Of a stretch of DNA of 64,000 nt, positions 3,982 through 19,577 are shown one piece after another. The notes below the pieces were generated by a model. The model made no database searches, was not told the DNA's origin, and saw nothing but the letters and a program-made list of their open reading frames with translations. The stretch covers positions 9,601 to 73,600 of the forward strand of contig JACPTI010000064.1 of the NCBI GenBank assembly GCA_016192845.1. The letters are read 5' to 3'. Positions within the stretch are counted from its first letter, which is position 1. Each line of letters starts with the position of its first letter. The stretch is from Acidobacteriota bacterium (lineage in GTDB: Bacteria; Acidobacteriota; Vicinamibacteria; Vicinamibacterales; UBA2999). Position numbers and translations under genes: made by a program.

Positions 3982-4008
3982 GGTTCAGCTCCTGTCATCA
4001 GTGGCGTG

Positions 4009-4043
4009 AGTATACCCGGAGGCCGACACCGGCATGCTAGACT
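4009..4043. promoter_or_regulatory. Divergent -10 elements: TATACT (minus, 4009-4014) for the hydrolase and extended TGcTAGACT (plus, 4035-4043) for the tRNA
   Basis: Sigma70-like hexamers at suitable distances from ATG 3981 and tRNA start 4055. Confidence 0.5.
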
Positions 4044-4054
4044 GAACTGCTCCG

Positions 4055-4131
4055 GGACGCGTAGCTCAGTTGGTTAGAGCACCCCGTTCACACCGGGGAG
4101 GTCACTGGTTCGAGTCCAGTCGCGTCCACCA
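4055..4131 (+). tRNA. tRNA-Val(CAC), CCA encoded
   Basis: Full cloverleaf: GGACGCG/CGCGTCC acceptor, GCTC/GAGC D-stem, CCCCG-TTCACAC-CGGGG anticodon arm, ACTGG-TTCGAGT-CCAGT T-arm. Confidence 0.98.
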
Positions 4132-4231
4132 CCTCCAACCTTTTGACCCCCAGTGACTTGCGATCCGACTGCAAATCGCTGATCGAACCAATCGGACCGC
4201 CTCCCGCCACACGTCGCTTGAAGATGAACGG

Positions 4232-4250
4232 TCGACGATGTCATCGTCGA
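4232..4250. promoter_or_regulatory. 19-bp palindrome TCGACGATG-T-CATCGTCGA, candidate operator
   Basis: Perfect 9-bp arms ending 20 nt before ATG 4270. Confidence 0.4.
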
Positions 4251-4269
4251 TGGTGGCGCGGCAACACAA

Positions 4270-4587
4270 ATGACCGACGATTCTCCCGTGATTCGGAGAG
4301 GACCCCTCAAAGGGAAGCGCGTCGAATGTGCCTCGATGAGCGGCATCGACGCGTTCCAGGAGCTTGCCGAAGACTTTATGCTCGACATCTTCGGCTTCGA
4401 GCCCGGCGAATATCTGATTACGGATCTCTCGAGCTTGCGTGATTTCGTCGGAGTCGACGACATGGAAGTGGTGGACATGCTGGCGAGAATCAGGGAGGTT
4501 TATGGACTGGATGTCGCCGACCTTCCGAATGGAAACCTGCTCGAAATCTTCCGGAGATTGGATAAACACCGAGCCGATCAACAGTGA
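4270..4587 (+). CDS. Small acidic hypothetical protein
   Basis: 105-aa ORF; its TGA overlaps the GTG of the next ORF (GTGA at 4584-4587). Confidence 0.7.
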   Translation: MTDDSPVIRRGPLKGKRVECASMSGIDAFQELAEDFMLDIFGFEPGEYLITDLSSLRDFVGVDDMEVVDMLARIREVYGLDVADLPNGNLLEIFRRLDKHRADQQ

Positions 4588-4937
4588 CTCCCGAGGACAC
4601 GACGAAGGCCGGCGAGGTGTTCGTACGGTTCTCGGGCTACGAGAACGACAACCGCGTGCGAGACGACGGAAGCCTTCGACCTGGGACCTACGCAACGACA
4701 GAGGAAGACGCGAAAAACGTCAAAACGGGAAAGGACGCAGTGGCCCGGTATGCTATGCCGAATCCTCAACCAGCGTCTTACCGCTTCACAATCAGGCCGG
4801 AGAGGGATACGGTTATTCAGAAGGGGATCGTCGAACCGGCGTTCGACCAGCCTGGCGGTGGCGTCGAAGTTATCTTCAAGAATGGGACGACGCCGAAGAC
4901 CGTGACGTTGCCGCCTGACAAGATCCCGGACGAGTGA
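4584..4937 (+). CDS. Stand-alone toxin-like domain, TNT/ADP-ribosyltransferase (NAD+-using) fold predicted
   Basis: VRFSG, GTYAT, ARYAMP..P..Y and GIVEPAFDQPGGGVEV resemble the TNT-family G.iaPwFgQPGGGxQ core; no signal peptide or carrier domain. Confidence 0.6.
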   Translation: MTPEDTTKAGEVFVRFSGYENDNRVRDDGSLRPGTYATTEEDAKNVKTGKDAVARYAMPNPQPASYRFTIRPERDTVIQKGIVEPAFDQPGGGVEVIFKNGTTPKTVTLPPDKIPDE

Positions 4938-4941
4938 GCAG

Positions 4942-5145
4942 ATGAGAATCAAACTCGATCGATGCTGGACTGAGCGACTGTTGGACTTACCCGAATCCGG
5001 GATGGGTTATCAGCGCGTCGACGTTCGCTTGGCCGATGGTCGGGTGTTGCGTGACGTCCTCGTGTTCAATGCTGAGGAACTGGAACTCCCCGACGAAGTC
5101 GCACCAGCCGCTATCGCGGACGTCCGCCTCCACGCGGCTTCCTAG
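4942..5145 (+). CDS. Small beta-rich protein, candidate immunity/antitoxin
   Basis: 67 aa, starts 4 nt after the toxin-like ORF stop; LPESGMGYQRVDVRLADG. Confidence 0.6.
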   Translation: MRIKLDRCWTERLLDLPESGMGYQRVDVRLADGRVLRDVLVFNAEELELPDEVAPAAIADVRLHAAS

Positions 5146-5706: not shown

Positions 5707-6375
5707 TCATCGCACCGCTTGTCCGTTGATGATCGTGTAGTGGTACGTCATCGAAAACGACGACGCACCGGCAAGGCGCACTTGCGCCTCGGATACCATC
5801 TCGACCGGCACGCGGACGCCGCCGATCCGCTCGTAGCGTCGGATGATGTCGACGCGCGTCGTCCACGACGATGGCGGCTCCGACGGGCGTCCCTCGACCC
5901 TGACGACGTCGCCGTTGTCCTGCCGTACAACAACCAGCCCTTCGAGCAGCATCGGACTTCGCCGGCGTGGGATCAGGCGGATGTTCACCAGGCCGTCCGA
6001 CGCAGGTCCGGCCACGTCGAAGTCATAGTTAGCCGGCGTGAGGGCCACCTCCGCCATCACCCGCGGATCCCGGCTGCGCCGCTCCGTCTCCAGCGCGGCA
6101 ATGAGCACGTGTTCCAGGAGCAGCCTCGATCCGTCTCCCCGAATCACATCGAATCGAAACGTGCCGTCGCGATCGAGGTACGTCCATACTTCCAGCCGCG
6201 CACGCAGCCGCCCGCCCATCGTGGAGGCGGTCAACACGCGGCGCGCCGCACAACTGGTCAACTCGGGGCGTCCGGAGCGCAGGAACTGCTCGATCAGTGC
6301 GTCATCGATCTTTGAAGCGCCCGCGGCAACCGCGGACGCGAGGCAGACGATGGCGAGAATGGCGACGAGCTTCAT
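5707..6375 (-). CDS. Exported hypothetical protein, LolA/MucB-like beta-rich fold suspected
   Basis: Signal peptide MKLVAILAIVCLASAVAAG; ATGA coupling with the DedA gene; amphipathic beta-strand pattern. Confidence 0.7.
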   Translation of the reverse strand: MKLVAILAIVCLASAVAAGASKIDDALIEQFLRSGRPELTSCAARRVLTASTMGGRLRARLEVWTYLDRDGTFRFDVIRGDGSRLLLEHVLIAALETERRSRDPRVMAEVALTPANYDFDVAGPASDGLVNIRLIPRRRSPMLLEGLVVVRQDNGDVVRVEGRPSEPPSSWTTRVDIIRRYERIGGVRVPVEMVSEAQVRLAGASSFSMTYHYTIINGQAVR

Positions 6376-6827
6376 AATCCTCTCCACGCAAGGTGCGGAA
6401 TGAATGCCACCGCACCGAAATGAATCAACCGGCCCAGCATGCCGACCGCCACGAATCGGCCGAATGCGACGTTGAGGGCCCCTGCCGCCATTGCAACCAC
6501 GTAGAACGGAGGGATGCCGACGGACGCGCTGACGAAGGTCACGCCGAGCCCGGATGCCGGGCAGCGCGACAGCCGCTCGCGCCAGCGGTCGACAACCTGT
6601 TCCAGTCGGAATCTCGATCGCGTCGTGCGTCGCCCGACCCAGTACATCGCCGCCTTGCCGGTCATCTGACCGGCCGCCACGACGGCGACGAGCGCGCCAA
6701 GCTCGACGGGTGATCCGGCCAGCGGGATGGCCGAGAGCATGACGAGCTCACCATTCACCCACGGCAGCACGGCGCTACAGGCGGCGAGCGCGTAGTACCC
6801 GGCGGCCAGCCACCAGATGTCCAGCAT
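6372..6827 (-). CDS. DedA/VTT-family membrane protein
   Basis: GQMTGK..MYWVGR and VS..G.PPFY....AAG.....F.RF....GR pattern; several TM helices. Confidence 0.75.
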   Translation of the reverse strand: MLDIWWLAAGYYALAACSAVLPWVNGELVMLSAIPLAGSPVELGALVAVVAAGQMTGKAAMYWVGRRTTRSRFRLEQVVDRWRERLSRCPASGLGVTFVSASVGIPPFYVVAMAAGALNVAFGRFVAVGMLGRLIHFGAVAFIPHLAWRGL

Positions 6828-6834
6828 GATGCAC

Positions 6835-7623
6835 CTACCAGGTCACGTGGCTGCTGAGCAGCACGTACAGGAGCCATGTCAGGGCATAGGGCGTCAGGAA
6901 CAGACGCCGCCGCGCCACCCACTCGGTGAACGGGCCCGTCATCGATCGGAACTTGCCCGGCGCGTACTCGCGGACGACGATCTTGAACAACAGCTCCAGG
7001 AACATCCGCATGCTGCCGATGGCGGCGAGCAGCAGGAACACGTCGTCGGCCGTGTGGCCCGATGCGATCACGCCGCCGAGCGCGCCGAAGGTGGGACTCT
7101 TCGCGAACTTGGGCCACGAAAACCCTTCGATGCTGCCGTCCTTGTAGCCGCCGGCAATCGCCTCCGCGATCCCGATGCTGAGCCCGACGACGAGACCGTG
7201 CAGGGCGCGGGGCCAGGAGTCGGAGACGAGCGTGCCGAGCGCGCCAATGCCGAAAATCGACGCGAGAAACCCGAATCCCAGCGCCAGCCGCAGCACCGGA
7301 TTGTGAACGACGCCCGTCATCCAGTGAATCTGCGTGGGTATCCGAAACTCCCCCTGCGGCTCGACACGGACGAACAGCTTCCAGAACTCCGTTGCAATGC
7401 GCGTGAGCGCGAACACCGCCAGATACAGCACGAACGCGCTCTGTGTGGTCGTCGGCGAATACACCCACGGCAGCGCGAATGCGATCGTCACGGCGACGGC
7501 AATCTCACGGACGAAGCGGCGCATCAGAAACGATTCGTGCGGGCTGTCCTTGTAGGCGCCGTACAAAGCGCCGTGGAGCCCGGCGGCAAGTCCAAGAGCG
7601 ATCATCGTGGCAAGCGTTATCAT
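6835..7623 (-). CDS. Multi-pass membrane protein with internal duplication (GAYKDS..ESF..RRF / GGYKDG..EGF..PKF)
   Basis: 262 aa, strong SD (AAGGAGG), about 7-8 hydrophobic segments; decayed paralog at about 13300-13800. Confidence 0.8.
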   Translation of the reverse strand: MITLATMIALGLAAGLHGALYGAYKDSPHESFLMRRFVREIAVAVTIAFALPWVYSPTTTQSAFVLYLAVFALTRIATEFWKLFVRVEPQGEFRIPTQIHWMTGVVHNPVLRLALGFGFLASIFGIGALGTLVSDSWPRALHGLVVGLSIGIAEAIAGGYKDGSIEGFSWPKFAKSPTFGALGGVIASGHTADDVFLLLAAIGSMRMFLELLFKIVVREYAPGKFRSMTGPFTEWVARRRLFLTPYALTWLLYVLLSSHVTW

Positions 7624-7779
7624 CCGGCCTCCTTCTCCACCCTGAAATGCGCCAACAGCGGCGCAATCGGCTCACAACGGGGAGACCGGTGGGAGGGGCA
7701 GACCGCTCGCCGGATCGGTTGCGTTGAATTGGATGTGGAACCGGTGAGCGCAGCTACAACAGCCGCGCGGTGTGTCGAG

Positions 7780-9444
7780 CTAGGCGACGGGGCGCTCAGG
7801 CATTCGCTTGAGCCCTACGAGCTTCCATCCCTCGGCGGTCCGCCTGAAGTAAGCCTGCACCGGGACTGTCCATGAAGGATGGGGCGGATTGATCGCCTCA
7901 ATGTCGATCCGTACGAACGATCCGATAGCAGTCGGCAGACCGACCGGCGCCTGCATCCGGCCGGTGGCGGCCGCGGTTGGCGTGCCGATCGGCCGCGATT
8001 CGCCGGTGTTGTTGTTGAAGACGAACCAGTAAGCGCGATATCCCCCGCTCGGCGGCTCGGCGGCTCGCGCATCGACAGCAGCGTTGTCGAATGTCAGTGC
8101 GCCGGACACGTCCAATGCGACGTTGACAAGAGGGTTGACCGCCGTCAGGTACGCACGGCCAATCCGGTCGCGGCGTTTGATCAACACGTCGGCCAGGTGC
8201 CGCTCGGCCGCGGGGTCGCTGTACTGGCCGGCCTCGACCACGGCGCGGATCAATTCATCCGAAAACGCCATCACCCGCCGGGCGGCCCAGAAGTTGTCGT
8301 CCGCCCGCGCGTTCATGAACGCGGCAGTCGGCACACGCGGCTTCCACGTGATGGGATCGAACTCATCGCCTTCAAATCGGCCAATGGAACGGCGCTGGAC
8401 GTACGGAATTGTCTGCCAGGGACGCAGGTAGAACCCCAGCGATGCAAGGCGCTTCCACGTGGCGTCACCCTCGAAGAGGTATTCGTGTCCTTCATCCCAC
8501 TCACGGGGCGCCAATGCTCCGGTACCGAACGTCGACCCGACATCCTGCAGATAATGCCGGACCCTACCGCGGCCGCCTTCGCTGATGAGCGTATCGAGGG
8601 TATTTCCGGCTTTCATGTCGACGAGGTTCGTCCATGCGCCAAACACCTTCAGCGCGCGCAGCTCACGCCGGTGCTCGTGCGGGACGATATCGTTGGGATC
8701 GTCGGGCCGCGTGCCGTGATACCGGAAGCCGCCAAGGACGCGGCCGGGAATGGCGCGGCTTGCCAACATCCGGTAGGCGCCGTTCGGCTGTCGCGCTGCC
8801 CGCTCGAGCAGCTTGCCGAGATCGTCACGGTCGAGCTGCCGGATCTTTCCTGAGGGCGTCTCTGTGACCGCCTTGGGACCGATCGTGAGATCCTCCGGCG
8901 ACAGCTCGGCAATGTGGTATTCCGCCTGCCAATAGCCGAGGAGGTGAAAGATTCTGTTGGCAACCATCGAGGCCCCGGTGGCCGCCTCGGGGTATTTCGC
9001 CGCCTCGAACTGAATAAACCACGTCACGCCCGCGGAATCCTGCAGCACGAACCCGGGACTCACGCCGGCCGGCTTGGCGCGCGTCACCGTCATCGGCCCA
9101 CGCGCCGGCTCCGGGCTGGTCACCGGTCCACGCAAGGCCTCCTCGATCGAAACAGCCCGCGCGAGAATCCGGTTTGTGAACCAACTCGAGTCAGGCACCT
9201 CGCCGATCGTGTTGACGTTCTGCGCCTTGATGGATCGGTGGTCGCCGGGACTGTCGAAAAGGTTCTGGATCAGGTCGTAGGTCAGAACATTCTTCCAAGG
9301 TTGTACCTTCGACGCGTCCTGCGTCTCCGGCTCGCGGAGAAGTGGATCGTCGTCGTAGAACTTCTGTCCGTTTCCCGCCAGATCGGCAGCCGTAACAGCG
9401 ACGGCTACGATGACGACGGCGATTACGCGGTGGCGGTACAACAC
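7780..9444 (-). CDS. Exported atypical protein-kinase-like protein (PI3/4-kinase/HipA/CotH-like fold suspected)
   Basis: GVSPGFVLQD..G..WFIQF, AW...VDMKAGNT (DxKxxN-like loop), HYLQDVG (DFG-like); hydrophobic N-terminus; GTG 9444 after GAGG. Confidence 0.6.
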   Translation of the reverse strand: MLYRHRVIAVVIVAVAVTAADLAGNGQKFYDDDPLLREPETQDASKVQPWKNVLTYDLIQNLFDSPGDHRSIKAQNVNTIGEVPDSSWFTNRILARAVSIEEALRGPVTSPEPARGPMTVTRAKPAGVSPGFVLQDSAGVTWFIQFEAAKYPEAATGASMVANRIFHLLGYWQAEYHIAELSPEDLTIGPKAVTETPSGKIRQLDRDDLGKLLERAARQPNGAYRMLASRAIPGRVLGGFRYHGTRPDDPNDIVPHEHRRELRALKVFGAWTNLVDMKAGNTLDTLISEGGRGRVRHYLQDVGSTFGTGALAPREWDEGHEYLFEGDATWKRLASLGFYLRPWQTIPYVQRRSIGRFEGDEFDPITWKPRVPTAAFMNARADDNFWAARRVMAFSDELIRAVVEAGQYSDPAAERHLADVLIKRRDRIGRAYLTAVNPLVNVALDVSGALTFDNAAVDARAAEPPSGGYRAYWFVFNNNTGESRPIGTPTAAATGRMQAPVGLPTAIGSFVRIDIEAINPPHPSWTVPVQAYFRRTAEGWKLVGLKRMPERPVA

Positions 9445-9457
9445 AGATGCCTCGACG

Positions 9458-10708
9458 CTAAAACGCCGGCCCCGCCGCAACGACGATCCGCATGCCTTCC
9501 TGGCCTCTCGCCAGATCGACGCGCAACGGGGTCGCGATGGGTGTGTGGAATCGCACGCCGATCCCGTAGTCGATCTTCATTTCGTCCAACGCGAGAAGGC
9601 CACTGCGGAACGGAGCGACTTTCCCGGCATCGATGAAGAGCGCCATATCGAGCCCAACGCGATTCGGAAACCACCGGAGCTCGCCCGAGAGCAGCAGGCT
9701 GTGCCGATCACGGAACCGCTGGTTGGCGTAGCCGCGCAGGCTGTCGCCGCTCCCCAGAGTGGGCATGAGGAAGTACGGTACGACGTCCGACTTGCGGACG
9801 ATCGATTCGGTGCCGCCGCGCAGCGACACCACCCACGTCTCGCGCAGGAGAGGCACATGCTGGACGATCTGCGTGCGCAGGAAGCCAAACGTGCCGCCGC
9901 TGCCACGGAGCGGGTTGAACTCTTCGTACGCCACACGGTACAGACCTCCGGTGCGGCTGTAACCCGGTGATTCCAGCCAATAGGCCGTCGCCGACGCCTC
10001 GCCGCGGAGGTAGAGCGGGTTGTCGCCGAGGAGAGGCGCCGTAGCCGGAGAGAAGATCTGCTCGATCGAGGGAGCGGCGCCGTGGCCGGGCTTCTGCGTG
10101 TAGTCATCGAAGCCGCCGTCCAATCGCAGACCCAGCCACCTCACGGGACGGAGCACCGCGGCGCCCTCCACATACGCGCGGTTGATTCGGAAGTTGGTGC
10201 GGTTGTCGAGGCGCGACGCATTGCCCAGTCCGTAGAATGCGACCTGCGTGGCGTCGACCCAGACGATCGAGCCCTCGAGATCGAGGCGCTCGCCCAGGTG
10301 GTTTGGGGTAAACCCTGTGATCGCAACCTTCTTGTAGCCCCTGACCGAATACAGAGCGCCCACGTCCACGAACGAGTCGTACCCGATGTATTGGCGGTAT
10401 CCGCCACCTGCCGCAAGGCCACCACCCGGATAGACGGATCCCACCGTGGAGTACCACCCCCGCGGAACTCCAAGAATCCACCTGCCCCGCTCAACCTGGT
10501 CTAAGAAGACTTCGACCCGGTTCGGGCGGTACGGCGCGGCCGTTCGCGCCTTGTCTTCCTGTTGTTTTTCGACTTCCGCCGCCCGAGTCTCCCACCCCAA
10601 CGCGGCTGCCGCGTTGGGGGCCCCGGTCTGGGCCGCGGCGGAAGCGGAGCAAGCGGCGATGATCGCCAGGAAGGCTGCCACGAGTCGGTACGTGGTCTGG
10701 TGATTCAT
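9458..10708 (-). CDS. Omp85/BamA-TamA-type outer-membrane beta-barrel without evident POTRA domains
   Basis: Signal peptide, LGSGDSLRGYANQRF (VRGY/F loop), C-terminal YGIGVRF...RVDLA...F; ATGA overlap with upstream gene. Confidence 0.85.
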   Translation of the reverse strand: MNHQTTYRLVAAFLAIIAACSASAAAQTGAPNAAAALGWETRAAEVEKQQEDKARTAAPYRPNRVEVFLDQVERGRWILGVPRGWYSTVGSVYPGGGLAAGGGYRQYIGYDSFVDVGALYSVRGYKKVAITGFTPNHLGERLDLEGSIVWVDATQVAFYGLGNASRLDNRTNFRINRAYVEGAAVLRPVRWLGLRLDGGFDDYTQKPGHGAAPSIEQIFSPATAPLLGDNPLYLRGEASATAYWLESPGYSRTGGLYRVAYEEFNPLRGSGGTFGFLRTQIVQHVPLLRETWVVSLRGGTESIVRKSDVVPYFLMPTLGSGDSLRGYANQRFRDRHSLLLSGELRWFPNRVGLDMALFIDAGKVAPFRSGLLALDEMKIDYGIGVRFHTPIATPLRVDLARGQEGMRIVVAAGPAF

Positions 10709-11532
10709 GAGGCGAGCGTCTTGCGGGTCGTCGCGAGCGTGAACTCGAGCGACTCGCGCGGGATGCTGGTCACGAATGGACGGATCAGCCAGCCGAACCC
10801 CAGGGGGATATCGCGCGTCAGCGATATGGATTCGCACTGGACGTACGTGCCGCCGTCCCGCTCGAGAAACCGCCAGTACGTATACAGCCGCCACAAGTAG
10901 CCCCCATCACGCCCGATGGGCTTCTCTCGCTCGCGCGGCGTATCGGGCGCCTCGACTTCGGCGATCCGCGTACTGTAAATCCGGCTCTGCGCCCGATCGC
11001 GACCGTCACGCTTGAAGCGTGCTTCGTGCTCACTGTTAACAATGACCGTGATGACTTTCTTCATGAAGAACCGCAGGTAGACGCGAAACCTATCGCCATC
11101 ACGGGCAAGCAACTTGGAACGGGCAACGGCAGGCTGATAGATCTGCGCATGCCGGTCGTAGTCCTGAAGCAGCGCGAGGGCCCGGTCGACGGTCGTACCG
11201 GGCACGAACACTAGGCCGATCCAGTGATGGACGAGGCCATCCGGTATGACGATCTCTCTCCCGGCGTCGCGTGTGGTGAGGCGTTCGATGAGAAGCGCGC
11301 CCCGCCGCAGTTCATCGCGATGCATCTGTTGCCGTCCCTCGGGCTGCGTATCCAGCCATAGGAACGCAACATCGGCATCCATCCGCGCTTCGGTCAGCTG
11401 CACGTAGTGATTGAATGCGGCAACTGTGCGAGCCTGCAGTTCCGCTGCTGCGGCTGGTATCGCCCACAACAACAACACCGCAGTGACGGCCACGCTGACT
11501 GACACACGCGTCAGACGATGCGCGTTGTTCAT
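10705..11532 (-). CDS. Exported uncharacterised protein, START/helix-grip-like fold suspected (paralog A)
   Basis: Signal peptide ending AAAA-ELQ; HHWIGLVFVPG, RIYSTRIAEV, YLWRLYTYWR; highly similar to 16638-17471. Confidence 0.75.
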   Translation of the reverse strand: MNNAHRLTRVSVSVAVTAVLLLWAIPAAAAELQARTVAAFNHYVQLTEARMDADVAFLWLDTQPEGRQQMHRDELRRGALLIERLTTRDAGREIVIPDGLVHHWIGLVFVPGTTVDRALALLQDYDRHAQIYQPAVARSKLLARDGDRFRVYLRFFMKKVITVIVNSEHEARFKRDGRDRAQSRIYSTRIAEVEAPDTPREREKPIGRDGGYLWRLYTYWRFLERDGGTYVQCESISLTRDIPLGFGWLIRPFVTSIPRESLEFTLATTRKTLAS

Positions 11533-11542
11533 ATACCGCTGT

Positions 11543-12346
11543 CTATCGCTCTTTCATACTGTTCTGAATGTTTGACGAAGCCTCCTGAGCACGCTTCTTC
11601 GCCTCGGGTTCCCAGCCACTTCTGGCCGCATAGGATTGCAGCAGGCCCATGGCCTTCGCCTTCGTACCGATTTCGGAAGCCTCAACTCCAATCTTTTCTA
11701 CGGCACGGACCGCCATCATGCGGACTTCCATGCCGCCTATAGCGGCGGATGAATCCAACGGTGCGACAAGCAGATCAAGCGCTGTTTGAAAGGCTCCGTC
11801 GTCGCGACTGCCTTCCACTGCTCTGACGACAGCGTTAATTGCCGGAATCCTGACGCCGTTGTTTCCGCTCTGAACCGCCGGCGTCAACACCTTCAATGCG
11901 GCCAGCGCGATCTGGGCGCCGCTTCCGGACCTCGTAATGCTGTTGACCGCGTCAATTGCGACATCACGTATGGGTACCTGGCTGGCTTGTAGTGGTTCGC
12001 CCAACGTCGCCAGCGCGCGGACCTTGACGCGAACGTCTTCAGTGCTGTTGGCGATTTCGGCGATCGCATATACGGCCGGCATCCTGATATGGTCCGATGC
12101 ACTGCCGGCCGGCTCAGCGAGGAGCCCCAACGCGCTCAGTTTCACATCGGAATTCGCGGATGCGAGGCCGATCGCCCAGACTCGGTGAAGCGCCTCGACT
12201 CGAGTTCGGGTGTCAGCGTCCCCGACTTTCTGTTTGAGCGCTACAAGCTCTGCGAGCTGAGTGCCCAGACTGGCTTGCGCGGACGCATGTCCACCCGTCG
12301 AAACCACGGCCACGACGACGGCAACAAACACAGTGCGGATCACCAT
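11543..12346 (-). CDS. Exported HEAT/ARM-like helical repeat protein
   Basis: Signal peptide; recurring S...vR..A..Ai..i....d..vk..AL..L units; SD upstream; visibly lower GC than flanks. Confidence 0.75.
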   Translation of the reverse strand: MVIRTVFVAVVVAVVSTGGHASAQASLGTQLAELVALKQKVGDADTRTRVEALHRVWAIGLASANSDVKLSALGLLAEPAGSASDHIRMPAVYAIAEIANSTEDVRVKVRALATLGEPLQASQVPIRDVAIDAVNSITRSGSGAQIALAALKVLTPAVQSGNNGVRIPAINAVVRAVEGSRDDGAFQTALDLLVAPLDSSAAIGGMEVRMMAVRAVEKIGVEASEIGTKAKAMGLLQSYAARSGWEPEAKKRAQEASSNIQNSMKER

Positions 12347-12602
12347 GCTCGTTCTCCTTTCGCGAGCGACGGCTCTCCTTCTTGGCGGCTTTGGACCACT
12401 ATGCGGCCCCCGAAACGAGAATTTTGTATCCGCTGCCCGGCGCGACTCGGGGCCGCAAGCGGTCCTAGGCGCGGGGAGCGCGCCAAGAGATGCACCTTAT
12501 ACACCCAAACGCCTCGTCCGGTGTCCTGTTGGAAGGCGAAATTGTGGTGAATGAGCCGTTTTTTTCCCAACCGCGCATTACGGGAGTGAAGGAGGTGCAG
12601 CC

Positions 12603-13294
12603 ATGATCGCTTCTCACCTAAAGCGGCTCAGTGCGCGCAGATAGGTCTTCGTCCTGGCGGTTTTTGGCGCGGTCCTGTTCGCCGCTGACTCTGCCGAGGC
12701 TCAACAAACATCGCGGCGCGTCGGCATCGGTGCAGCCATCGGCGACGTGCATAGCATCTTCGCCACGGCGGCGTTGCGGACCACCGAGGACGCCGTTGCC
12801 GCGCCTTTGATCCTTTTCCCGATCCAGATCACGAACTGGTTTCGAATCGAACCTGCGGTAGGCGTGTTTCGCCACAGCCACGACGAACCCGCGGACTACT
12901 CGGTCAATGGAGTCGAGCTTGGGCTCGGGATATTTCCGCAACTGGTCCAGAGAGCTTCCGACTGTATTACGGGGCTCGTGTAGGTTACATGAGAGCGAAA
13001 GAGGAACAGAAGGAAACCATCGCCATGCGCGGCGTGCAGATCACAGGAACGAAAATGCAAACGGTTGATGGGTTCTTTGTCGCGCCCGCCATTGGCGGGG
13101 AATATCTGTTTTCGGACCGATTCAGCCTCGGAGCAGAAGTTCAGTTTCGACACACGTCCATCAAGGGTGACGAGGTCAGCACGCTTAGCGGGCTGCGTCC
13201 TGGGGTACGCGTTCCGAGTGCGCCAGAGGCCGAAAGATTCGACACGTCGGTCTCGACAACCCGTGTCCTTTTCGTCACGCGTTTCTATTTCTGA
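12603..13294 (+). pseudogene. Outer-membrane beta-barrel (OmpA-like/porin) pseudogene
   Basis: AAGGAGG SD then ATG 12603; in-frame TAG at 12642-12644 inside the signal peptide; frameshift near 12955 joins ..GLGIFPQ to FRLYYGARVGY..; ends in beta-signal ..VTRFYF. Confidence 0.7.
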
Positions 13295-13299
13295 GGGGC

Positions 13300-13800
13300 A
13301 AGTCCGCCGTTGTATAGTTGCGCTCGCAGGAGGGAGACAGCAGATGCCGAAGTAATCTGATCCTGGCCTCGTACACGAACGTCGGACTCCTGGCAAAGGT
13401 GCACCAGGAGAACCCCTCGATGCTACCGTCCTTATAGCTGCCGGCCATCCCCTCGGCGATGCCCACGCAGAGCCGTACGAGCAGATTCGCGTACGGCGCG
13501 CAGCCACCATTCAGGAACGAGCATGCCGACCGCCGAAGAACCCGATTCCGAGCGCCAGCCGCAGCGGCAGATTGTGAACAACGTGCTTATCCAAAGAATC
13601 TCTGTGTCAATGCGAAATTCCTCCTGCGGCTCGACGCGCACGGAGAGCTTCCAGAACTCGGTGGCAATCCGCGTGGGAGCGAACACCGAGAGGTACAGCA
13701 CGAAGCCGCTCTGGCTGGCCGTCGCCAGGTACAGCAACGGCAGCAGGAACGAGACCACTACGCACGGCGAGGCTTGGCCACGAGGAGACGCTCAGAAGCA
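13300..13800 (-). pseudogene. Decayed copy of the 6835-7623 membrane protein gene
   Basis: FVLYLSVFAPTRIATEFWKLSVRVEPQEEFRI and GSYKDGSIEGFSW.TFARSPTF match the intact paralog in different frames; 5' truncated, internal deletion. Confidence 0.85.
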
Positions 13801-13819: not shown

Positions 13820-14347
13820 GTGGGCGTCAACTCTTCGCAAGCAGACGTCGACGATTTGGTACAGGTGGTCTATAGCGAACTGCGGCGGCTCGCGGCGGGC
13901 TACTTGCGGCGGGAACGACCCGGCCAGACGCTGCAGGCGACGGCGCTGGTCCACGAGGTGTACATGCGCCTCGCCAACGCAGGCCGGCCGTGGACCGACC
14001 GCCGGCACTTCCTCGGGATCGCGGCGCGGTCGATGCGGCAGATTCTCGTGGAGCGGGCGCGGGCGCGAGGCGCGCAGAAACGTTGGGGCGCCATGGATCG
14101 CGTGACGCTGACCGAATCGCTGACAAGCGGCGCGAACGACGATGCCATGCTGCCCGCGCTGCATGAGGCGCTGTCGCGGCTCGAGCGGATCGACGCCGAG
14201 CAGGCGAGAATCATCGAGCTTCGCTATTTTGCGGGACTCAGCGTCGAAGAAGCGGCCGACGCACTGGGTATGTCTCCCGCCACGTTGAAGCGGCGCTGGG
14301 CGCTGGCGCGCGCCTGGCTCTTTCGCGAACTGAACGGTCAGCGATGA
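13820..14347 (+). CDS. ECF sigma factor, TIGR02999-type (kinase-associated)
   Basis: VYSELRRLA..YL..ER.GQTLQATALVHEVY, RHF.GIAARSMRQILVE, LRYFAGLSVEE, KRRW..ARAWL. Confidence 0.9.
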   Translation: MGVNSSQADVDDLVQVVYSELRRLAAGYLRRERPGQTLQATALVHEVYMRLANAGRPWTDRRHFLGIAARSMRQILVERARARGAQKRWGAMDRVTLTESLTSGANDDAMLPALHEALSRLERIDAEQARIIELRYFAGLSVEEAADALGMSPATLKRRWALARAWLFRELNGQR

Positions 14348-15828
14348 TCGCCGGCGACCGCTGGCAGCGCGTGCGCGACCTGTTCGAGCAAGCCCTCGAG
14401 GAAAAGCCTCCGGACGTGGGCGCGTGGCTCGATCGGCTCGGGGTGGGGGACTGGCAGGTTCGCGAGGAGCTCGTGTCGCTGATCCGCCATCACTCCTCCG
14501 CTGGATCCTTTCTTGTCAAGCCTGCTAGCGATCGGCTCTCAGATCTCATGGCCGATGACGGAACGCTCGAGCCCGGCCACAATGTTGGCCAGTACACCAT
14601 TGTGCGCCAAATCGGTCATGGTGGCATGGGGCGTGTCTATCTGGCCGAAGACGCACGACTCGGGCGACGGGTTGCGCTCAAGGCGCTGTCGCCCGAGCTA
14701 ACGGCAGACCCCTCACATCGCGAGCGGCTGCGGCGCGAGGCCCGCGCGGCCGCGGCGCTGACGCACCCGGGCATCTGCACGATTTACGCGCTCGAGGAGA
14801 TCGATGGGAACCTCTTCATTGCCAGCGAATTCATCGACGGGCACACGCTGCGCGAAGAAATGGCGAGTGGCGTCCGGCCCGCCGCGACCGACGTCGTGCG
14901 CACCGCCCGGGAGCTGGCCGACGCGCTCGCGGCCGCGCACGGCCGGGGCATCACTCACCGCGACCTGAAGCCGGAGAATGTGATGCGAGCGACCGACGGC
15001 CGGTTGAAAATCCTCGACTTCGGCCTCGCGCGCATCGAGCAGACGGCCGCCGCGGCGGCGCTGTCGGCCGAGGATCGCGTCACGCAGCCCGGCGCGATTA
15101 TCGGCACACCGGCGTACATGGCGCCCGAGCAGTTGAATGGGGTGCGCGCCGACCCCCGTGCGGACGTTTTCGCCTTCGGCGTGCTCATCTATGAGTACGC
15201 GTGCGGCATCCATCCGTTTCACGCGGCATCACCGCTGGCGCTGATCGGACGCATTCTCGAGGGGAGCGCCGAGCCGCTCGAAAGCCGGCGGTCGGACCTG
15301 CCCGCGCGGCTCATCGCCGTCATCGAACGATGCCTGTCGAAATCGCCGGCTGACCGTTTCGCGTCGGCAGTCGAGGTGCTGCGGGCGTTGGAGCGCGTCG
15401 AGCCGGTGCCCGCCTCCCGCAGGATCCGAACGTGGTGGCGAGCGCATCAGTTAGTCCTCATCGCCCTGTACTTCACCGCCTGCGCCCTCGCGTGGCAGGT
15501 CAAGGAATGGTTGCCTGGCGTCACGACGGCAATCTTCGTCGCAACATGCGTGGCCGCGACCATTGGCGGCGTATTCCGCGGTCACATGGTCTTCAGCGAA
15601 CGCGTCACCGGCCTCGAGCCGGCCTCCCCAGGCCGGAGCGCCGCTACGGCAACCCTCGTCGTCGACCTGCTGGTGGCGCTCGCCCTGACGGCCGACGGCG
15701 CCCTTCTCGCGCCCCAGCGCCCGCTTCCGGCCGTGCTGACGATCGCCCTGGGCATCGGCATCGCGCTCGCGCGCGTGGTGGTCGAACCGACGACCACTAC
15801 TGCGACGCTGAGGCAGCCGCGGCTGTGA
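14344..15828 (+). CDS. Hanks-type Ser/Thr protein kinase with C-terminal multi-TM domain
   Basis: IGHGGMGRVY, VALK, HRDLKPEN, DFG, GTPAYMAPE; about four TM helices at the C-terminus; ATGA overlap with ECF. Confidence 0.92.
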   Translation: MIAGDRWQRVRDLFEQALEEKPPDVGAWLDRLGVGDWQVREELVSLIRHHSSAGSFLVKPASDRLSDLMADDGTLEPGHNVGQYTIVRQIGHGGMGRVYLAEDARLGRRVALKALSPELTADPSHRERLRREARAAAALTHPGICTIYALEEIDGNLFIASEFIDGHTLREEMASGVRPAATDVVRTARELADALAAAHGRGITHRDLKPENVMRATDGRLKILDFGLARIEQTAAAAALSAEDRVTQPGAIIGTPAYMAPEQLNGVRADPRADVFAFGVLIYEYACGIHPFHAASPLALIGRILEGSAEPLESRRSDLPARLIAVIERCLSKSPADRFASAVEVLRALERVEPVPASRRIRTWWRAHQLVLIALYFTACALAWQVKEWLPGVTTAIFVATCVAATIGGVFRGHMVFSERVTGLEPASPGRSAATATLVVDLLVALALTADGALLAPQRPLPAVLTIALGIGIALARVVVEPTTTTATLRQPRL

Positions 15829-15874
15829 GCCGGAGGACCCATGCTTTGCGCATTCCAGGTTGGAGGCCAAAAGC

Positions 15875-16576
15875 ATGTCGCACCACCAGGCTCAACCGTG
15901 CTGCGTTCACACGCGCGAAAACAGAGGTCTGCTCGCCGTCGTTGAACGGCGCGCGCTTGTCTGGATCGCCGAGCGCCTGCCGCCACGCATCAACTCGGAC
16001 CACCTGTCCGGGCTGGGCTTGGTCGCGATGGCCGCCGCCGGCCTGTCGTTTGCGGCGTTCCGTTTCACGCCGTGGGCCGCGGCAGGGGTGGTGGCCGCGC
16101 TGGCCGCCAACTGGTTTGGCGACAGTCTGGATGGCACCGTTGCGCGCGTGCGCGGCCAGCAGCGGCCGCGCTACGGCTTTTACGTCGACCACCTGATTGA
16201 TCTGGCGGGCACCACGCTCCTGCTGGCCGGCCTGGCGTGCTCCACGTTGATGAGCCCCCTCGCCTGCGCCCTGCTGTTGGCGGCGTATCTGCTTGTGTCG
16301 GCAGAAATGTATCTCGCGACGCACGCGGCGGGGGTCTTCCGGATGTCGTTCGGGGGGTTTGGCCCGACGGAACTGCGAGTGCTGCTGGCCATCGGGGCGC
16401 TCCAGGCCGCGATCGACCCGTGGGTGTCATTGCACCTGCTGGGCCCAATCCGGCTCTTCGATCTCGGTGCGCTGGTCGCGTCAGCCGGCCTTGCCGTTGT
16501 CTTCGTTGTCTCGGCGGTTCGCAATACGCGCGCGCTCTCTGTGGCGGACCCTCGTCCGACTCGCATCACTGACTGA
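15875..16576 (+). CDS. CDP-alcohol phosphatidyltransferase
   Basis: NW.GDSLDGTVARVRGQQRPRYGFYVDHLID matches the D..DG..AR...G...D..D signature. Confidence 0.9.
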   Translation: MSHHQAQPCCVHTRENRGLLAVVERRALVWIAERLPPRINSDHLSGLGLVAMAAAGLSFAAFRFTPWAAAGVVAALAANWFGDSLDGTVARVRGQQRPRYGFYVDHLIDLAGTTLLLAGLACSTLMSPLACALLLAAYLLVSAEMYLATHAAGVFRMSFGGFGPTELRVLLAIGALQAAIDPWVSLHLLGPIRLFDLGALVASAGLAVVFVVSAVRNTRALSVADPRPTRITD

Positions 16577-16637
16577 GGACAGCATGATGTGCCGCGGGCC
16601 GCCCTTCACGTCTCGCGGGTGCGCGTCCGGCACCCCG

Positions 16638-17471
16638 CTACCTGGCCAGCGTCCTGCGCGTGGTCGCCAGCGTGAATTCGAGAGACTCGCGCGGGATGCT
16701 GGTCACAAAGGGCCCGATCAGCCAGCCAAACCCGATCGGGATGTCCCGCGTCAGCGAGATCGACTCGCACTGCACGTATGTGCCACCATCCCGCTCAACA
16801 ACGCGCCAATACGTGTACAGGCGCCAGAGGTACCCGCCGTCACGTCCGACCGGCTTTTCGCGCTCGCGAGGGGTATCGGCCGCCTCGACTTCGGCGATGC
16901 GTGTGCTGTAGATGCGGCTCCGGGCGCGGTCCGGTCGATCTCGATCGAACCGCGCTTCGTGCTCGCTGTTCACCACCACCGTGATGATCTTCTTCATGAC
17001 GAATCGCAGTTCCATCCGGAACAGGTCGCCGTCACGGGCGAGCAGGCGGGATCGAGCGACGGCCGGGCGGTAGATCTCGGCATGCCGGTCGTAGTCCTGC
17101 AGGAGGCCCAGTGTACTGTCGACAGTCGCCCCGGGCACGAAGACCAGCCCGACCCAGTGGTGGACGAGACCCTCGGGGATCGCGATTTCCTTGCCGCCCT
17201 CTCGAATGGTCAGGCGCTCGATGAGCACGGCTCCCTGCTGCAGCTCGCTGCGTCGCCTCGATTGCTGCGACGGCGGCAACGCGTCCACCCAGAGGAATGC
17301 GCTCTCGCTGGCCATACGCGCCTCGGTGATGCGCACATACCGGTCGAAGGCGGCAATCGTGCGAGGCTGCAGCTCCGCAGCACTGGCGGCGACTGCCCAC
17401 AACGCGGATGCCGCAGCAGTCAGACCGATCCAGACGCGCGGTCGACGCGGCGCTGCCTCGATATTCGGCAT
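16638..17471 (-). CDS. Exported START/helix-grip-like protein (paralog B)
   Basis: Near-collinear with 10705-11532 (HHWVGLVFVPG, RSRIYSTRIAEV, ESLEFTLATTR). Confidence 0.75.
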   Translation of the reverse strand: MPNIEAAPRRPRVWIGLTAAASALWAVAASAAELQPRTIAAFDRYVRITEARMASESAFLWVDALPPSQQSRRRSELQQGAVLIERLTIREGGKEIAIPEGLVHHWVGLVFVPGATVDSTLGLLQDYDRHAEIYRPAVARSRLLARDGDLFRMELRFVMKKIITVVVNSEHEARFDRDRPDRARSRIYSTRIAEVEAADTPREREKPVGRDGGYLWRLYTYWRVVERDGGTYVQCESISLTRDIPIGFGWLIGPFVTSIPRESLEFTLATTRRTLAR

Positions 17472-17483
17472 CGGTATATATAC

Positions 17484-17512
17484 AAAAGGGGCAGCCCCGA
17501 AGGACTGCCCCT
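17484..17512 (-). terminator. Intrinsic terminator with UUCG tetraloop
   Basis: Minus strand GGGGCAGTCC-TTCG-GGGCTGCCCC-TTTT right after the 17545 stop. Confidence 0.75.
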
Positions 17513-17544
17513 CTCTGCCTCGCAGCATTGGCGACGCGCGCCGA

Positions 17545-18087
17545 CTACGAGGTCTTCTTGAGCTGGACGAGCAGCGCTTCCAGCATTTTCACATATTCGG
17601 CCTCGGTCGCCTGGAACGCCTTCATGTACTCCTGCTCCGACAACTTGGCCTTGTCCCAGTCGCCGTCGAACGTGTAGCTGCGCCCGCCGATGTCAGCCGT
17701 GTCGAACTGGTTCTCGCGGCGCCGCGGATAGAGCCCGTTGGCGCCGAGGTCCGAAATCAGGACCTTGGAGGCCGGCACCGACGCGCTGTTCAGATCGATG
17801 TAGACGTCGCGGTAGTTCTTCTTCGCGAGCTGCTCGTCCATCCGTTCGGGCACGCTGTACCGCGCCCTGACGACGAGGAGCTGACTGCCGGGGAAATACA
17901 GCGCGCCGACGTACTCGTCGCCCTGCACCTTCGCGGCGATGCTGTCGAGTTTCATCGAGTCGAGGAGTGTGGCAAGCTCCGCCGCAAGTCCGCCCGACTT
18001 GGATTCCTGCGCCCCGGCGAGCACCGGCACCAGCAGCAGGACGAATGCGAAGACCAGCCGTCGCACACCACGCACGCGATCAGTCAT
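17545..18087 (-). CDS. Exported conserved hypothetical protein
   Basis: Signal peptide ending LAGA-QES; strong GC3 codon bias; start 18087 preferred to 18183. Confidence 0.75.
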   Translation of the reverse strand: MTDRVRGVRRLVFAFVLLLVPVLAGAQESKSGGLAAELATLLDSMKLDSIAAKVQGDEYVGALYFPGSQLLVVRARYSVPERMDEQLAKKNYRDVYIDLNSASVPASKVLISDLGANGLYPRRRENQFDTADIGGRSYTFDGDWDKAKLSEQEYMKAFQATEAEYVKMLEALLVQLKKTS

Positions 18088-18105
18088 GGTGCCCCCCGGG
18101 AAGCA

Positions 18106-18139
18106 CCCCACCGCGCAAATTCCGCGCGGCGGGGACCCC
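18106..18139. repeat. REP-like hairpin CCCCACCGCGC..GCGCGGCGGGG-ACCCC; sister copy at 31637-31671
   Basis: Same stem sequence in two intergenic regions. Confidence 0.6.
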
Positions 18140-18192
18140 GCAACGCTAGGGCGTCTTGTATCACCGGCGGCGGCGCCCGTCAATCAGGAGTC

Positions 18193-18243
18193 GGCAGTAG
18201 GCAGTGGGCACTGGGCCGTGCGGCTTACTGCCTACTGCCTACT
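18193..18243. repeat. Heptamer tandem repeats in inverted arms (GGCAGTA / TACTGCC)
   Basis: Directly visible. Confidence 0.75.
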
Positions 18244-18526
18244 ATCCAATGAAGAGCGGGCCTTCCTCGTCGGGCGATCCGGCGCGCGCGTCCTTCTGCG
18301 GCCCGCGGAAGATCGCGAGGATCGCCTTGAACACCGACGTCGCGCGGGCGGCGTCGGCCGTGAGCGCCTGCAGGCTGGCCACGATGGGGCGGATGTCCTG
18401 CTCGACGCGGTCGGCAAACCGATCGACGCGGCGCGCGAGCCGGACGGCGACGATGACGGCGGCCACCTGAATGGCGGCCATCACCAGCACCGCAACGGCG
18501 ATCACGCCGAGAAAGACGTCCGCCAC
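18242..18526 (-). CDS. Small single-TM hypothetical protein at end of the mla operon
   Basis: N-terminal TM helix then amphipathic helix; abuts the mlaD stop. Confidence 0.65.
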   Translation of the reverse strand: MADVFLGVIAVAVLVMAAIQVAAVIVAVRLARRVDRFADRVEQDIRPIVASLQALTADAARATSVFKAILAIFRGPQKDARAGSPDEEGPLFIG

Positions 18527-19566
18527 TAGAACAGGCTCACGCGCACGCTGAGGAATTTCCTGGGATCGGCGCGGATGTCGCGCACGAGCTGACGCAGCTC
18601 GGCGACCGCGCTATTCATGTTCTCATACAACTGCCCGTCGCGCAGCAATTGTCCGGCGGTCCCCTGCCCCTCCTGCAGGCCGGCCATCACCTTGTCGAGG
18701 CGGTCTGACATCGAGTTCAGCCGGTCGTACAGTTCCCGGTCGCTAATCAGCTTCCCCGCCGTCCCCTCGCCGCGGCTGATGCGCCCCGTGATCGCATCGA
18801 GGTTCGTCGTCGTCGAGGCGAGCGAACGCGCGAGTGCGTCGTCGTTGAGAAACCTGCCCAGGCTTCCCTCGCCCGCGCGAATCCGCGCCGTGATCGCCTC
18901 GAAGTTCTGCAGCGACGACTCGAGCGCCTTCGCCGCCGCCGGATCGTTGACCAGCCGCCCCAGCGTGCCGCGCCCCCGGTTCACGCTGGCGACGACCTTT
19001 TCCGCCGCCGAGACGAGCGCCGTCATCTCGTTATAGAGCGCTTCGTCCGTAAAGAGTCGGCCGACTGTTCCCTGACCGCGGCGGATGTCCTGCAGCAGAT
19101 ACGTCAGCTGCTCGATGCCCTGGGTGGCGCGCGTGGCCACCTCCGTCAGCGATCCGGGCGTGGGCCCGGACGGCACGTATCCCCATTCCGGAATCGGCGT
19201 GCCGCGGCTCGAGGCGGTGATATCGACGGCGGCCTCACCCAGCAGCGAGACCGACCCGAGGTACGCCCGCGACTCGGTCGTCACCTGGCGCTGATAGTCC
19301 TGGTTGAGCTCCACGACGACCTCGACCTGGTCGCCCACCAGATCGACCTCGCTCACCGATCCGACCTCGACGCCGGCAACGCGCACCGGCGCGCCCGGCT
19401 TCAGGCCCGCGGCGTTGGGAAAGATGGTCTTGATCGAGTAGCGCTGCCAGAAGAAGCCCCCTTCCCCGCTGACGAGGAAGATGAGGACCATCGACGTGAC
19501 GAGCGCGAAGGCGGCCACGAGTCCAATCTTGAGCTCAGCCCATCCGAGCGAGCGCGTGCGGGGCAT
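18526..19566 (-). CDS. mlaD: MCE/MlaD family protein with long helical tail
   Basis: GLKPGAPVRVAGVEVGSV MCE motif; five G.G(T/S).G(R/K/Q)L repeats. Confidence 0.9.
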   Translation of the reverse strand: MPRTRSLGWAELKIGLVAAFALVTSMVLIFLVSGEGGFFWQRYSIKTIFPNAAGLKPGAPVRVAGVEVGSVSEVDLVGDQVEVVVELNQDYQRQVTTESRAYLGSVSLLGEAAVDITASSRGTPIPEWGYVPSGPTPGSLTEVATRATQGIEQLTYLLQDIRRGQGTVGRLFTDEALYNEMTALVSAAEKVVASVNRGRGTLGRLVNDPAAAKALESSLQNFEAITARIRAGEGSLGRFLNDDALARSLASTTTNLDAITGRISRGEGTAGKLISDRELYDRLNSMSDRLDKVMAGLQEGQGTAGQLLRDGQLYENMNSAVAELRQLVRDIRADPRKFLSVRVSLF

Positions 19567-19577
19567 TGCTTATCCTT

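Follow-up and report, generated by a model that had tools for sequence, protein, structure and literature searches.

Do six co-oriented genes, packed into 5.8 kb of an acidobacterial genome, encode one pathway? The question is raised by a stretch of 64,000 nucleotides (hereafter the window; assembly GCA_016192845.1, contig JACPTI010000064.1, positions 9,601 to 73,600 of the forward strand) from a Vicinamibacterales genome (phylum Acidobacteriota) with a guanine plus cytosine (G+C) content of 67%, assembled from groundwater metagenomes. An earlier note, made from the sequence alone, had described six genes (g1 to g6) at positions 5707-11532 and had read them as a pathway that makes, flips, phosphorylates and ferries an unusual lipid. 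Comparison with related loci leads to a different answer. Very probably, and the grade covers both statements jointly, in the 5.8-kb "operon" four evolutionary units have come to lie side by side in this lineage only (g2 + g3; g1; g4 + g5; g6), and the first of these, as judged from sequence comparison, is the only invariant unit across loci: an Omp85 barrel and a kinase-fold protein of about 555 aa, which would constitute an obligate and hitherto undescribed two-gene system, widespread in soil and groundwater Acidobacteria. As the best explanation overall we favor, with some confidence, this mosaic combined with a two-partner Omp85/kinase-fold core.

Distribution of the Omp85/kinase-fold pair

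About 106 related loci were compared in all, 80 of them from GTDB species representatives and 20 from the 40 nearest genomes. The GTDB locus search was centred on homologues of g3 with a profile of 14 sequences, and the 80 loci that it yielded are nearly all labelled Acidobacteriota, with identities of 46-73%. An Omp85 gene lies directly upstream of the g3 homologue, on the same strand, in 79 of them, the sole locus without it being a 3.7-kb contig; likewise, an Omp85 homologue directly precedes the g3 homologue in all 20 loci from the related genomes. The earlier note had itself tied its proposal to lipid-binding folds and to the co-occurrence of the six genes in other genomes. On the first count START is indeed a fold for hydrophobic ligands, and the VTT and Omp85 labels were right; on the second, co-occurrence is not what was found. 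Homologues of g1, g4 and g5 are present in none of the 80 GTDB loci, g6 is near a g3 homologue in only three, on the opposite strand and 2.5-4 kb off, and none of these four genes accompanies g3 in the 20 loci from the 40 nearest genomes. Because g1, g4-g5 and g6 each have their own distribution and show no joint co-occurrence, the six genes very probably do not represent one pathway. Tight spacing and co-orientation were here no sign of a conserved pathway.

Homologues of g3 were detected in 24 of 41 related genomes, with at most five matches per genome (some of them fragmented), and the source genome carries three Omp85/kinase-fold pairs. The pairwise distances of the g2 homologues correlate with those of the g3 homologues (r = 0.89, a value reached by none of 999 Mantel permutations), and the pair duplicates and diverges as a unit. 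Concerning its size, the g3 family comprises 3704 clusters at 50% identity; its named members are all annotated as "hypothetical protein" and none carries a Pfam domain. There is no Pfam or NCBIfam model for the g3 family, and no literature linking an Omp85 barrel with a kinase-like partner was found. One locus of the comparison (L018; G026:C7:330000-349900) packs three Omp85/kinase-like pairs side by side into 9 kb, of which one diverges from the others, and looks like a local expansion of the pair.

The neighborhoods of the pair have recurrent features as well. Serine/threonine kinase (STK) genes occur near it in 36 of the 106 loci, compared with about 10% expected, a roughly 3-fold enrichment. 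Exported or membrane PAP2 phosphatases were seen in 17 of the 106 (10 adjacent and on the same strand) and PPK2 polyphosphate kinases in eight (six adjacent), while TonB-dependent receptors and PP2C phosphatases are further recurrent neighbors. Together, the last four kinds of neighbor give a hint of phosphate chemistry at the envelope, without defining a substrate.

Properties of the barrel and of the kinase-fold protein

Five of the six folds that the earlier note had guessed hold, namely an exported START-like protein (g1), an Omp85 barrel (g2), an exported kinase-like protein (g3), a membrane protein with a duplicated motif (g4) and a DedA/VTT protein (g5); the LolA-like label of g6 was not confirmed. 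The product of g2 matches the Omp85 model PF01103 (E = 4.4e-10, 40 bits against a cut-off of 24). No POTRA family and no DUF5982 was matched at E <= 0.1 by g2 or its 17 homologues; within the family (n = 17), 15 members match Omp85, none POTRA or DUF5982, and a single one shows a weak match to ShlB (PF03865, E = 0.0016). In the family alignment, the signal peptide is succeeded by a periplasmic N-terminal helix, conserved over some 45 residues (TRAxxIxxQQxEKA...), and then by the barrel; in g2, only some 55 residues separate the signal peptide from the first barrel strand. The loop-6 motif LRGY at residue 324, FIDAG (FxDxG, beta13) at residue 358 and the terminal Phe 416 are all conserved in the alignment. 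Searched against the PDB, the family profile matched the TamA and BamA barrels with no FhaC chain among its matches, and the single sequence of g2 gave no match to PDB chains. As an Omp85 barrel that lacks POTRA domains and whose profile is closest to TamA and BamA, g2 is, on its sequence, a noNterm Omp85 with a BamA/TamA-type barrel. This class was named by Heinz and Lithgow (2014; PMC4104836) and is still without an assigned function (PMC11358297).

For g3, no Pfam, NCBIfam or PDB-chain sequence match was obtained, and its fold was assigned by structure prediction. The AlphaFold2 model, built from a 76-sequence family alignment, has a predicted local distance difference test (pLDDT) score of 94.2 and a predicted template modelling (pTM) score of 0.91, and presents a globular bilobal kinase fold with a C-terminal beta-sandwich at residues 450-560. 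The best Foldseek matches in the PDB are Fam20C structures (4kqa and 4kqb, E = 5e-5, probability 1.0). Probabilities of 0.94-1.0 were returned for Fam20C, Helicobacter pylori CtkA and Hydra Fam20, of 0.84-0.85 for Fam20A, and of 0.33-0.63 for PI4KII-alpha and HipA/HipT; the alignment with CtkA (3akk) gave a TMt of 0.43-0.49. Sub-threshold Pfam matches to HipA_2 and HipA_C were each seen in 11 of the 76 relatives, with best E-values of 8e-4 and 0.012, respectively. Neither g3 nor any of the 76 relatives matches a HipA family model (PF07804 / PF20613) above threshold, g3 itself having no match to them, and the relation to the HipA family is a distant one.

The residues expected of a kinase are largely conserved. 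Among the 76 sequences, D288 is kept in 68, K/R290 in 64, N293 in 70, D296 in 71, H309 in 75 and D313 in 73, and g3 possesses the catalytic-loop Asp/Asn and the metal-binding Asp of the DxG motif (D288, N293 and D313) together with K290. The position of the beta3 Lys is occupied by Lys in 55 relatives and by Gln in 13, with other residues in further members. Nine further positions are invariant in the family (R258, D261, D264, H268, R272, R275, D395, W398 and R436), the first six of them forming the invariant signature RxxDxxDxxxHxxxRxxR.

Predicted signal-peptidase sites of the g3 family fall 2-5 residues ahead of a conserved (K/R)F(F/Y)xDDP motif, which is followed by NVNTxDEVPDSSWFTNR; given these likely cleavage sites just ahead of it, the motif is the predicted mature N-terminus. 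The g3 protein of the window contains no Cys. Across the family Cys makes up 0.05-0.16% of residues and 62-78% of the members are Cys-free, compared with 0.79% Cys over the whole genome and a Cys-free share of 12.5% among its proteins of similar size. The barrel family stands at 0.02% Cys and the periplasmic START family at 0.62%. Such depletion is characteristic of proteins that are inserted in the outer membrane or pass through it, and would suit g3 as one of them. Of eight long g3 homologues, only one (P0296) fuses a C-terminal piece of Omp85 to a part resembling g3; it was probably called across a read-through or on a truncated contig, and we rejected it as Rosetta-stone evidence. Three of the others (P0344, P0275 and P0298) have a common, unrelated C-terminal extension of 300-600 aa, with the motifs FEGVTHAL and GHLTAANSDVRAG and no Pfam match.

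Layout of the locus and its neighboring genes

The features of the locus are collected in Table 1. The six ORFs (open reading frames) were found, all on the minus strand, at the coordinates first described, and so the genes and their co-orientation as given in the earlier note stand; its description of the junctions as ATGA overlaps or short gaps does not extend to g3 and g4, which are separated by 156 nt. Read directly from the sequence, g1 and g2 overlap by ATGA. The g2/g3 junction is a 13-nt gap if the GTG at 9444, from which the public annotation starts (554 aa), is taken as the beginning of g3, g4 and g5 are 7 nt apart, and g5 and g6 share an ATGA overlap if g6 begins at the ATG at 6375. 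A seventh gene, g0, sits 10 nt upstream of g1 and had not been counted. Hydropathy indicates N-terminal signal-peptide-like segments in g0, g1, g2, g3 and g6, whereas g4 and g5 are polytopic. The terminator scan found no terminator-like site in the 156-nt g3-g4 gap and the promoter scan no sigma-70-like promoter; with every terminator-like match lying inside a gene, both scans were uninformative. The sequence of the locus is present only in groundwater DNA metagenomes. Additionally, g0, g1 and the gap at 12347-13376 are low in G+C (0.59-0.62 against 0.67 for the window), as is a stretch at 4001-5000 (0.58) that holds the tRNA-Val gene, about 1.6 kb beyond g6. These patches and the tRNA gene fit a variable, rearranged region.

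Table 1. Coordinates of the genes and other features of the locus (positions within the window).
Feature	Position	Strand	Description
tRNA-Val gene	4055-4131	+	
g6	5707-6387	-	226 aa, or 222 aa from the likely start ATG at 6375; exported
g5	6372-6827	-	151 aa, VTT/DedA-domain membrane protein
g4	6835-7623	-	262 aa, internally duplicated polytopic membrane protein
g3	7780-9480	-	566 aa, or 554 aa from GTG at 9444; exported kinase-fold protein
g2	9458-10708	-	416 aa, POTRA-less (noNterm-type) Omp85 barrel
g1	10705-11532	-	275 aa, exported, START/SRPBCC fold
g0	11543-12346	-	267 aa, exported, Ala/Val/Leu-rich
Fragment of second g4 copy	13377-13767	-	degenerate, frameshifted
ECF (extracytoplasmic function) sigma factor	13820-14347	+	TIGR02999/PF07638 type
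STK	14344-15828	+	Hanks-type membrane Ser/Thr kinase; Pfam/NCBIfam matches
CDP-alcohol phosphatidyltransferase	15860-16576	+	PF01066
START paralogue g1'	16638-17528	-	75-77% identical to g1
MlaD-domain protein	18526-19566	-	
ABC ATPase	19578-20618	-	

The AlphaFold2 model of g1 (pLDDT 91.3) has the START/SRPBCC helix-grip fold, and Foldseek returned 256 PDB matches at E <= 0.001, with 3qsz as the best by E-value (2e-8), TTHA0849 as the best by TM-score (2d4r, TMt 0.76), and CERT, STARD10 and PCTP among the others. No Pfam model is matched by g1 above threshold; weak matches in its family are to Polyketide_cyc (24 of 67) and Polyketide_cyc2 (14 of 67). The second START gene and the CDP-alcohol phosphatidyltransferase, both of which the earlier note had pointed out, are indeed close by, and they belong to a module (ECF sigma factor, STK, CDP-alcohol transferase and START gene) that is conserved in several Vicinamibacterales families, the copy in the window spanning 13820-17528 and including g1'. 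The four genes are contiguous in one further locus (L141) and grouped in three (L148, L150 and L151). A g1-family gene adjoins a CDP-alcohol transferase in 11 genomes, and the two co-occur (16 genomes with both, 5 + 5 with one only, 15 with neither; Fisher p = 0.0017). The transferase itself scores 26.1 bits against PF01066 (cut-off 22), and its nearest NCBIfam models are (archaet)idylinositol-phosphate synthases, far under their cut-offs. From the conserved adjacency to the transferase, the g1 family may be surmised to bind a lipid or another hydrophobic ligand, and the module could be one by which a special phospholipid is made under regulation and carried through the periplasm.

The genes g1 and g1' share 80% nucleotide identity at 5.9 kb from each other, while g4 and its degenerate fragment are 78-84% identical with a spacing of about 6270 nt; the repeat pairs 7263-7484 / 13534-13754 and 10711-11010 / 16644-16943 have an offset of about 6 kb (78-84% nucleotide identity). 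This common offset indicates that a segment of some 6 kb was duplicated long ago. The duplicated segments now enclose different genes, Omp85 and g3 in one, and ECF, STK and CDP-alcohol transferase in the other. As judged from these repeats, g1 is a local duplicate of the START gene of the module, g1', now translationally coupled to g2. The ATGA-coupled g1-g2 arrangement is also found in L033, and coupling of the two genes in L034.

Five distinct loci have a g3 orthologue of 67% identity or more; in four of them the pair is located within the STK/CDP-alcohol transferase/START module or next to it, the fifth being a 6-kb contig. Specifically, the gene orders are STK-Omp85-g3-START (L037), STK-Omp85-g3-CDP-alcohol transferase (L052) and START-Omp85-g3 (L033), and in L035 the START gene is 7 kb from the pair. 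As the pair sits in or beside the START module in its closest orthologues, a connection with lipids is plausible, for this sub-lineage only. The idea that g1 is dedicated to the pair was also considered and rejected. The g1 orthologues of L050 and of one JGI contig are immediately followed by a DUF2252 gene, while L033 has the Omp85/g3 pair between these two genes, so that the block of L050 has g1 without the pair; moreover, the presence of g1 is uncorrelated with that of g3 (odds ratio 2.0, p = 0.35). A large gene encoding a GAF-sigma54-activator-kinase fusion adjoins in L033, L050 and the JGI contig. On the other side of the module, g1' ends a minus-strand run at 16638-20618 with short gaps, which comprises the ABC ATPase, the MlaD-domain protein and two ORFs of 94 and 212 aa without a family. 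This run may be a Mla-like lipid transporter with the START protein in the place of MlaC; Mla genes were not seen beside the g1 homologues checked in other genomes.

The halves of g4 align with each other (E = 5e-8; motifs GAYKDSPHESF and GGYKDGSIEGF) and the protein has no Pfam match. It is present in two of 41 relatives and, across the phylum, in 14 of 301 genomes; the copies most similar to it belong to a different family of Acidobacteriota. Each of the four close homologues outside the source genome (L039, L132-L134) has a VTT gene immediately after it, and g5 is itself a VTT protein (PF09335, 40.2 bits against a gathering cut-off of 33.9). On this evidence from gene order, g4 and g5 are a rare and patchily distributed pair of their own. 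Homologues of g6 were detected in 11 of 41 related genomes and have no shared neighbor across 12 loci. No LolA-type model of Pfam or NCBIfam is matched by g6 or its 12 relatives; weak Pfam matches in the family are to DUF5686 (4 of 13) and DUF620 (2 of 13), hhalign gave a probability of 0.1% against an alignment of LolA_like homologues (PF17131) from related genomes, and the g6 profile yielded only chance-level matches in the PDB (diaminopimelate epimerase). Finally, g0 (G+C 0.60) has a faint HEAT/GCN1-like match and no homologue in any compared locus; it is apparently an orphan, possibly HEAT-like.

Possible modes of action and comparison with known systems

How the pair might work can be outlined as follows. 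The Sec machinery would export g3, and its signal peptide would be cut 2-5 residues before the (K/R)F(F/Y)xDDP motif. The g2 barrel would be the dedicated outer-membrane partner of g3, and would either translocate it to the cell surface or hold it at the outer membrane, in a manner similar to type Vb secretion. There, the D288/N293/D313 metal-nucleotide site could transfer a phosphoryl group to, or simply bind, an envelope or extracellular substrate; the conservation of the site suggests phosphoryl or nucleotidyl transfer. We favor a two-partner arrangement because g3 is depleted in Cys and has an obligate barrel partner, and the several paralogous pairs that genomes carry imply diversified substrates. 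In the sub-lineage of the window, the pair would have inserted into or next to the START module, probably under the same ECF/STK control, with g1 as an exported START-fold carrier of hydrophobic ligands. That the barrel exports or anchors an active ecto-phosphotransferase is a tentative proposal drawn from sequence features, which we rate as possible but short of probable. The more specific claim of a previously unrecognised type-V-like two-partner class, placing an active HipA/CtkA-like phosphotransferase at the surface or outer membrane, is unlikely enough to be put forward with reserve.

Several observations weigh against this outline or parts of it. The Foldseek TM-scores of g3 are low (0.28-0.49, at 9-13% identity) despite the high probabilities. 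Both g3 and its close orthologues have Q157 in place of the beta3 Lys, and the g3 copy may therefore be catalytically atypical or dead. The Cys depletion fits any protein of an oxidising compartment equally well. The barrel resembles insertase-type Omp85s (TamA and BamA), not the TpsB translocators, and has no cargo-recognising POTRA, while g3 has no TPS domain (it lacks a Pfam match, and its model consists of the kinase fold and the beta-sandwich). Neither the periplasm nor the cell exterior is known to hold usable levels of ATP. As for the mosaic, the g3-g4 gap contains no recognisable terminator and all six genes may therefore still be co-transcribed.

Among the alternatives, the one that survives best confines the matter to this lineage: g1 to g3 would be an operon under the neighboring ECF/STK pair and, with the CDP-alcohol transferase and g1', would serve lipid remodelling under envelope stress. 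The synteny in L037, L052 and L033, the conservation of the module and the STK enrichment near pairs all argue for it, as does the gene for a TIGR02999/PF07638 sigma factor beside that for a Hanks kinase, ECF43-type sigma factors being activated via phosphorylation by Hanks-type kinases (PMC13147305, PMC7826278). No promoter motif was identified, however, and the link extends no further than the closest orthologues (identity of 67% or more), these genes being missing from the approximately 70 other loci, and so we regard such a regulon as rather doubtful, though conceivable.

A second alternative keeps g3 in the periplasm, where it would dock under the barrel and, encoded by a gene of its own, stand in for POTRA domains, and would act on an outer-membrane lipid or glycan (for instance a headgroup that PAP2 dephosphorylates) or gate the barrel. 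TamA works with a separately encoded partner, TamB, and the barrel of g2 is of the BamA/TamA type, with a conserved N-terminal periplasmic helix. The 10 adjacent PAP2 genes and the link to the CDP-alcohol transferase and START genes in the closest orthologues would also suit this arrangement, and co-divergence of the pair suits any stable complex. On the other hand, the Cys depletion of g3 is nearer to that of outer-membrane or secreted proteins than to that of the periplasmic START protein, and no periplasmic phosphate donor is known, a point that also counts against an exported phosphotransferase. A periplasmic complex of this kind seems unlikely to us.

Less likely still is a pseudokinase, in which catalysis has been lost at least in the Q157 clade and g3 is a ligand-binding or structural surface protein that the barrel anchors or translocates. 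The change of the beta3 Lys to Gln in g3 and 13 of 76 relatives, and to other residues in further members, speaks for it, and Fam20A, itself a pseudokinase, is among the structural matches. Since the nine invariant positions lie outside the canonical catalytic motifs of kinases, a different functional site is also suggested. Yet D288, K/R290, N293, D296, H309 and D313 are kept in about 90% of the family, the Q157 clade included, and several active kinases, such as the WNK kinases, do without the canonical Lys.

Finally, a single pathway in which the six genes and the CDP-alcohol transferase make, flip (VTT), phosphorylate, carry and export (Omp85) an unusual lipid is highly improbable: in its favor are co-orientation, tight spacing with two ATGA overlaps, the g3-g4 gap without a terminator, the confirmed START fold and VTT domain, the link between START and CDP-alcohol transferase, and the membrane PAP2 phosphatases beside the pair elsewhere, but the genes do not co-occur (g1, g4 and g5 in 0/80 loci, g6 in 3/80), g4-g5 and g6 follow their own distributions, the presence of g1 and g3 is uncorrelated, the LolA-like fold of g6 is unconfirmed, and the segmental duplication with its g4 pseudogene fragment points to recent shuffling. 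What stands of the earlier proposal is the START/CDP-alcohol transferase link and, in one sub-lineage, the link of the pair to it.

Returning to the mosaic with a two-partner core, it gives one large subgroup of noNterm Omp85s a defined, obligate partner, and whether the barrel exports, anchors or regulates this partner becomes a testable question. If the proposal is true, it would supply the first function for a noNterm Omp85. Since there is hardly any record of bacterial phosphorylation outside the cytoplasm, one would not have expected a HipA/CtkA-like family that is exported, free of Cys and thousands of members strong, and that has no Pfam model. Should g3 be active, it would represent a new chemistry of the envelope or the cell exterior in Acidobacteriota, a phylum that is dominant in soil and groundwater and has few members in culture, and free-living Acidobacteria would possess several extracytoplasmic kinases per genome, acting on envelope lipids, glycans or external substrates. 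The ECF/STK/CDP-alcohol transferase/START module is a separate and tractable candidate, for a regulated special phospholipid and its delivery across the periplasm.

Comparison with known systems places each unit beside a familiar family and sets it apart from it. The g1 and g1' proteins share the helix-grip fold of the START/SRPBCC lipid-transfer proteins (Xanthomonas 3qsz, CERT, STARD10 and PCTP), although g1 is extended at its N-terminus by a helical region of some 45 aa. They resemble MlaC-type periplasmic shuttles in being exported and linked to a phospholipid head-group transferase, with g1' at the end of a run that includes MlaD and an ABC ATPase, whereas the fold of MlaC differs from the START fold of g1. 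The g5 protein is above the gathering score of the DedA/VTT model PF09335, but with its 151 aa it has little beyond the VTT core and it is always paired with the duplicated-repeat g4, which belongs to no described family.

Concerning the barrel, g2 is similar to the noNterm Omp85s (PMC4104836), for instance LIC12252, LIC12254 and LIC12258 of Leptospira (PMC11358297), in consisting of the barrel only and in keeping the lid-lock motifs. For these proteins too, neighboring genes have been proposed as passengers (PMC11358297). Unlike the Leptospira/Cytophagales group, g2 lacks the DUF5982 signature and a single partner family accompanies the barrel here, in 79 of 80 loci. With TamA-TamB, the pair shares a barrel profile closest to TamA/BamA and a partner encoded directly downstream that has an N-terminal hydrophobic helix; however, TamA has three POTRA domains and BamA five, while g2 has none, and TamB is an AsmA-like beta-taco of about 1200 aa, in contrast with the kinase fold of g3. 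The resemblance to type Vb secretion (TpsB + TpsA, as in FhaC/FHA and ShlB/ShlA) lies in an Omp85-superfamily barrel beside a Sec-exported, Cys-poor partner, in a conserved motif at the mature N-terminus of that partner, and in partners that are inherited and diverge as pairs. The differences are that TpsB has two POTRA domains and g2 none, that g2 matches PF01103 and not PF03865 (ShlB), and that g3 is a globular kinase fold without the TPS domain or beta-helix of TpsA.

As for g3, it differs from the secreted and atypical kinases CtkA, Fam20C, HipA, HipT and PI4KII-alpha in its extra N-terminal segment, its RxxDxxDxxxHxxxRxxR signature, its helical bundle and its C-terminal beta-sandwich, in the missing beta3 Lys of its clade, and in an obligate Omp85 partner that is unique to the g3 family. 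These same kinases are nevertheless its best structural matches, with weak HipA_2/HipA_C similarity, and share with it the catalytic-loop Asp/Asn and the Asp of DxG. Two of them, CtkA of H. pylori and the Golgi casein kinase Fam20C, act outside the cytosol, as is proposed here for g3.

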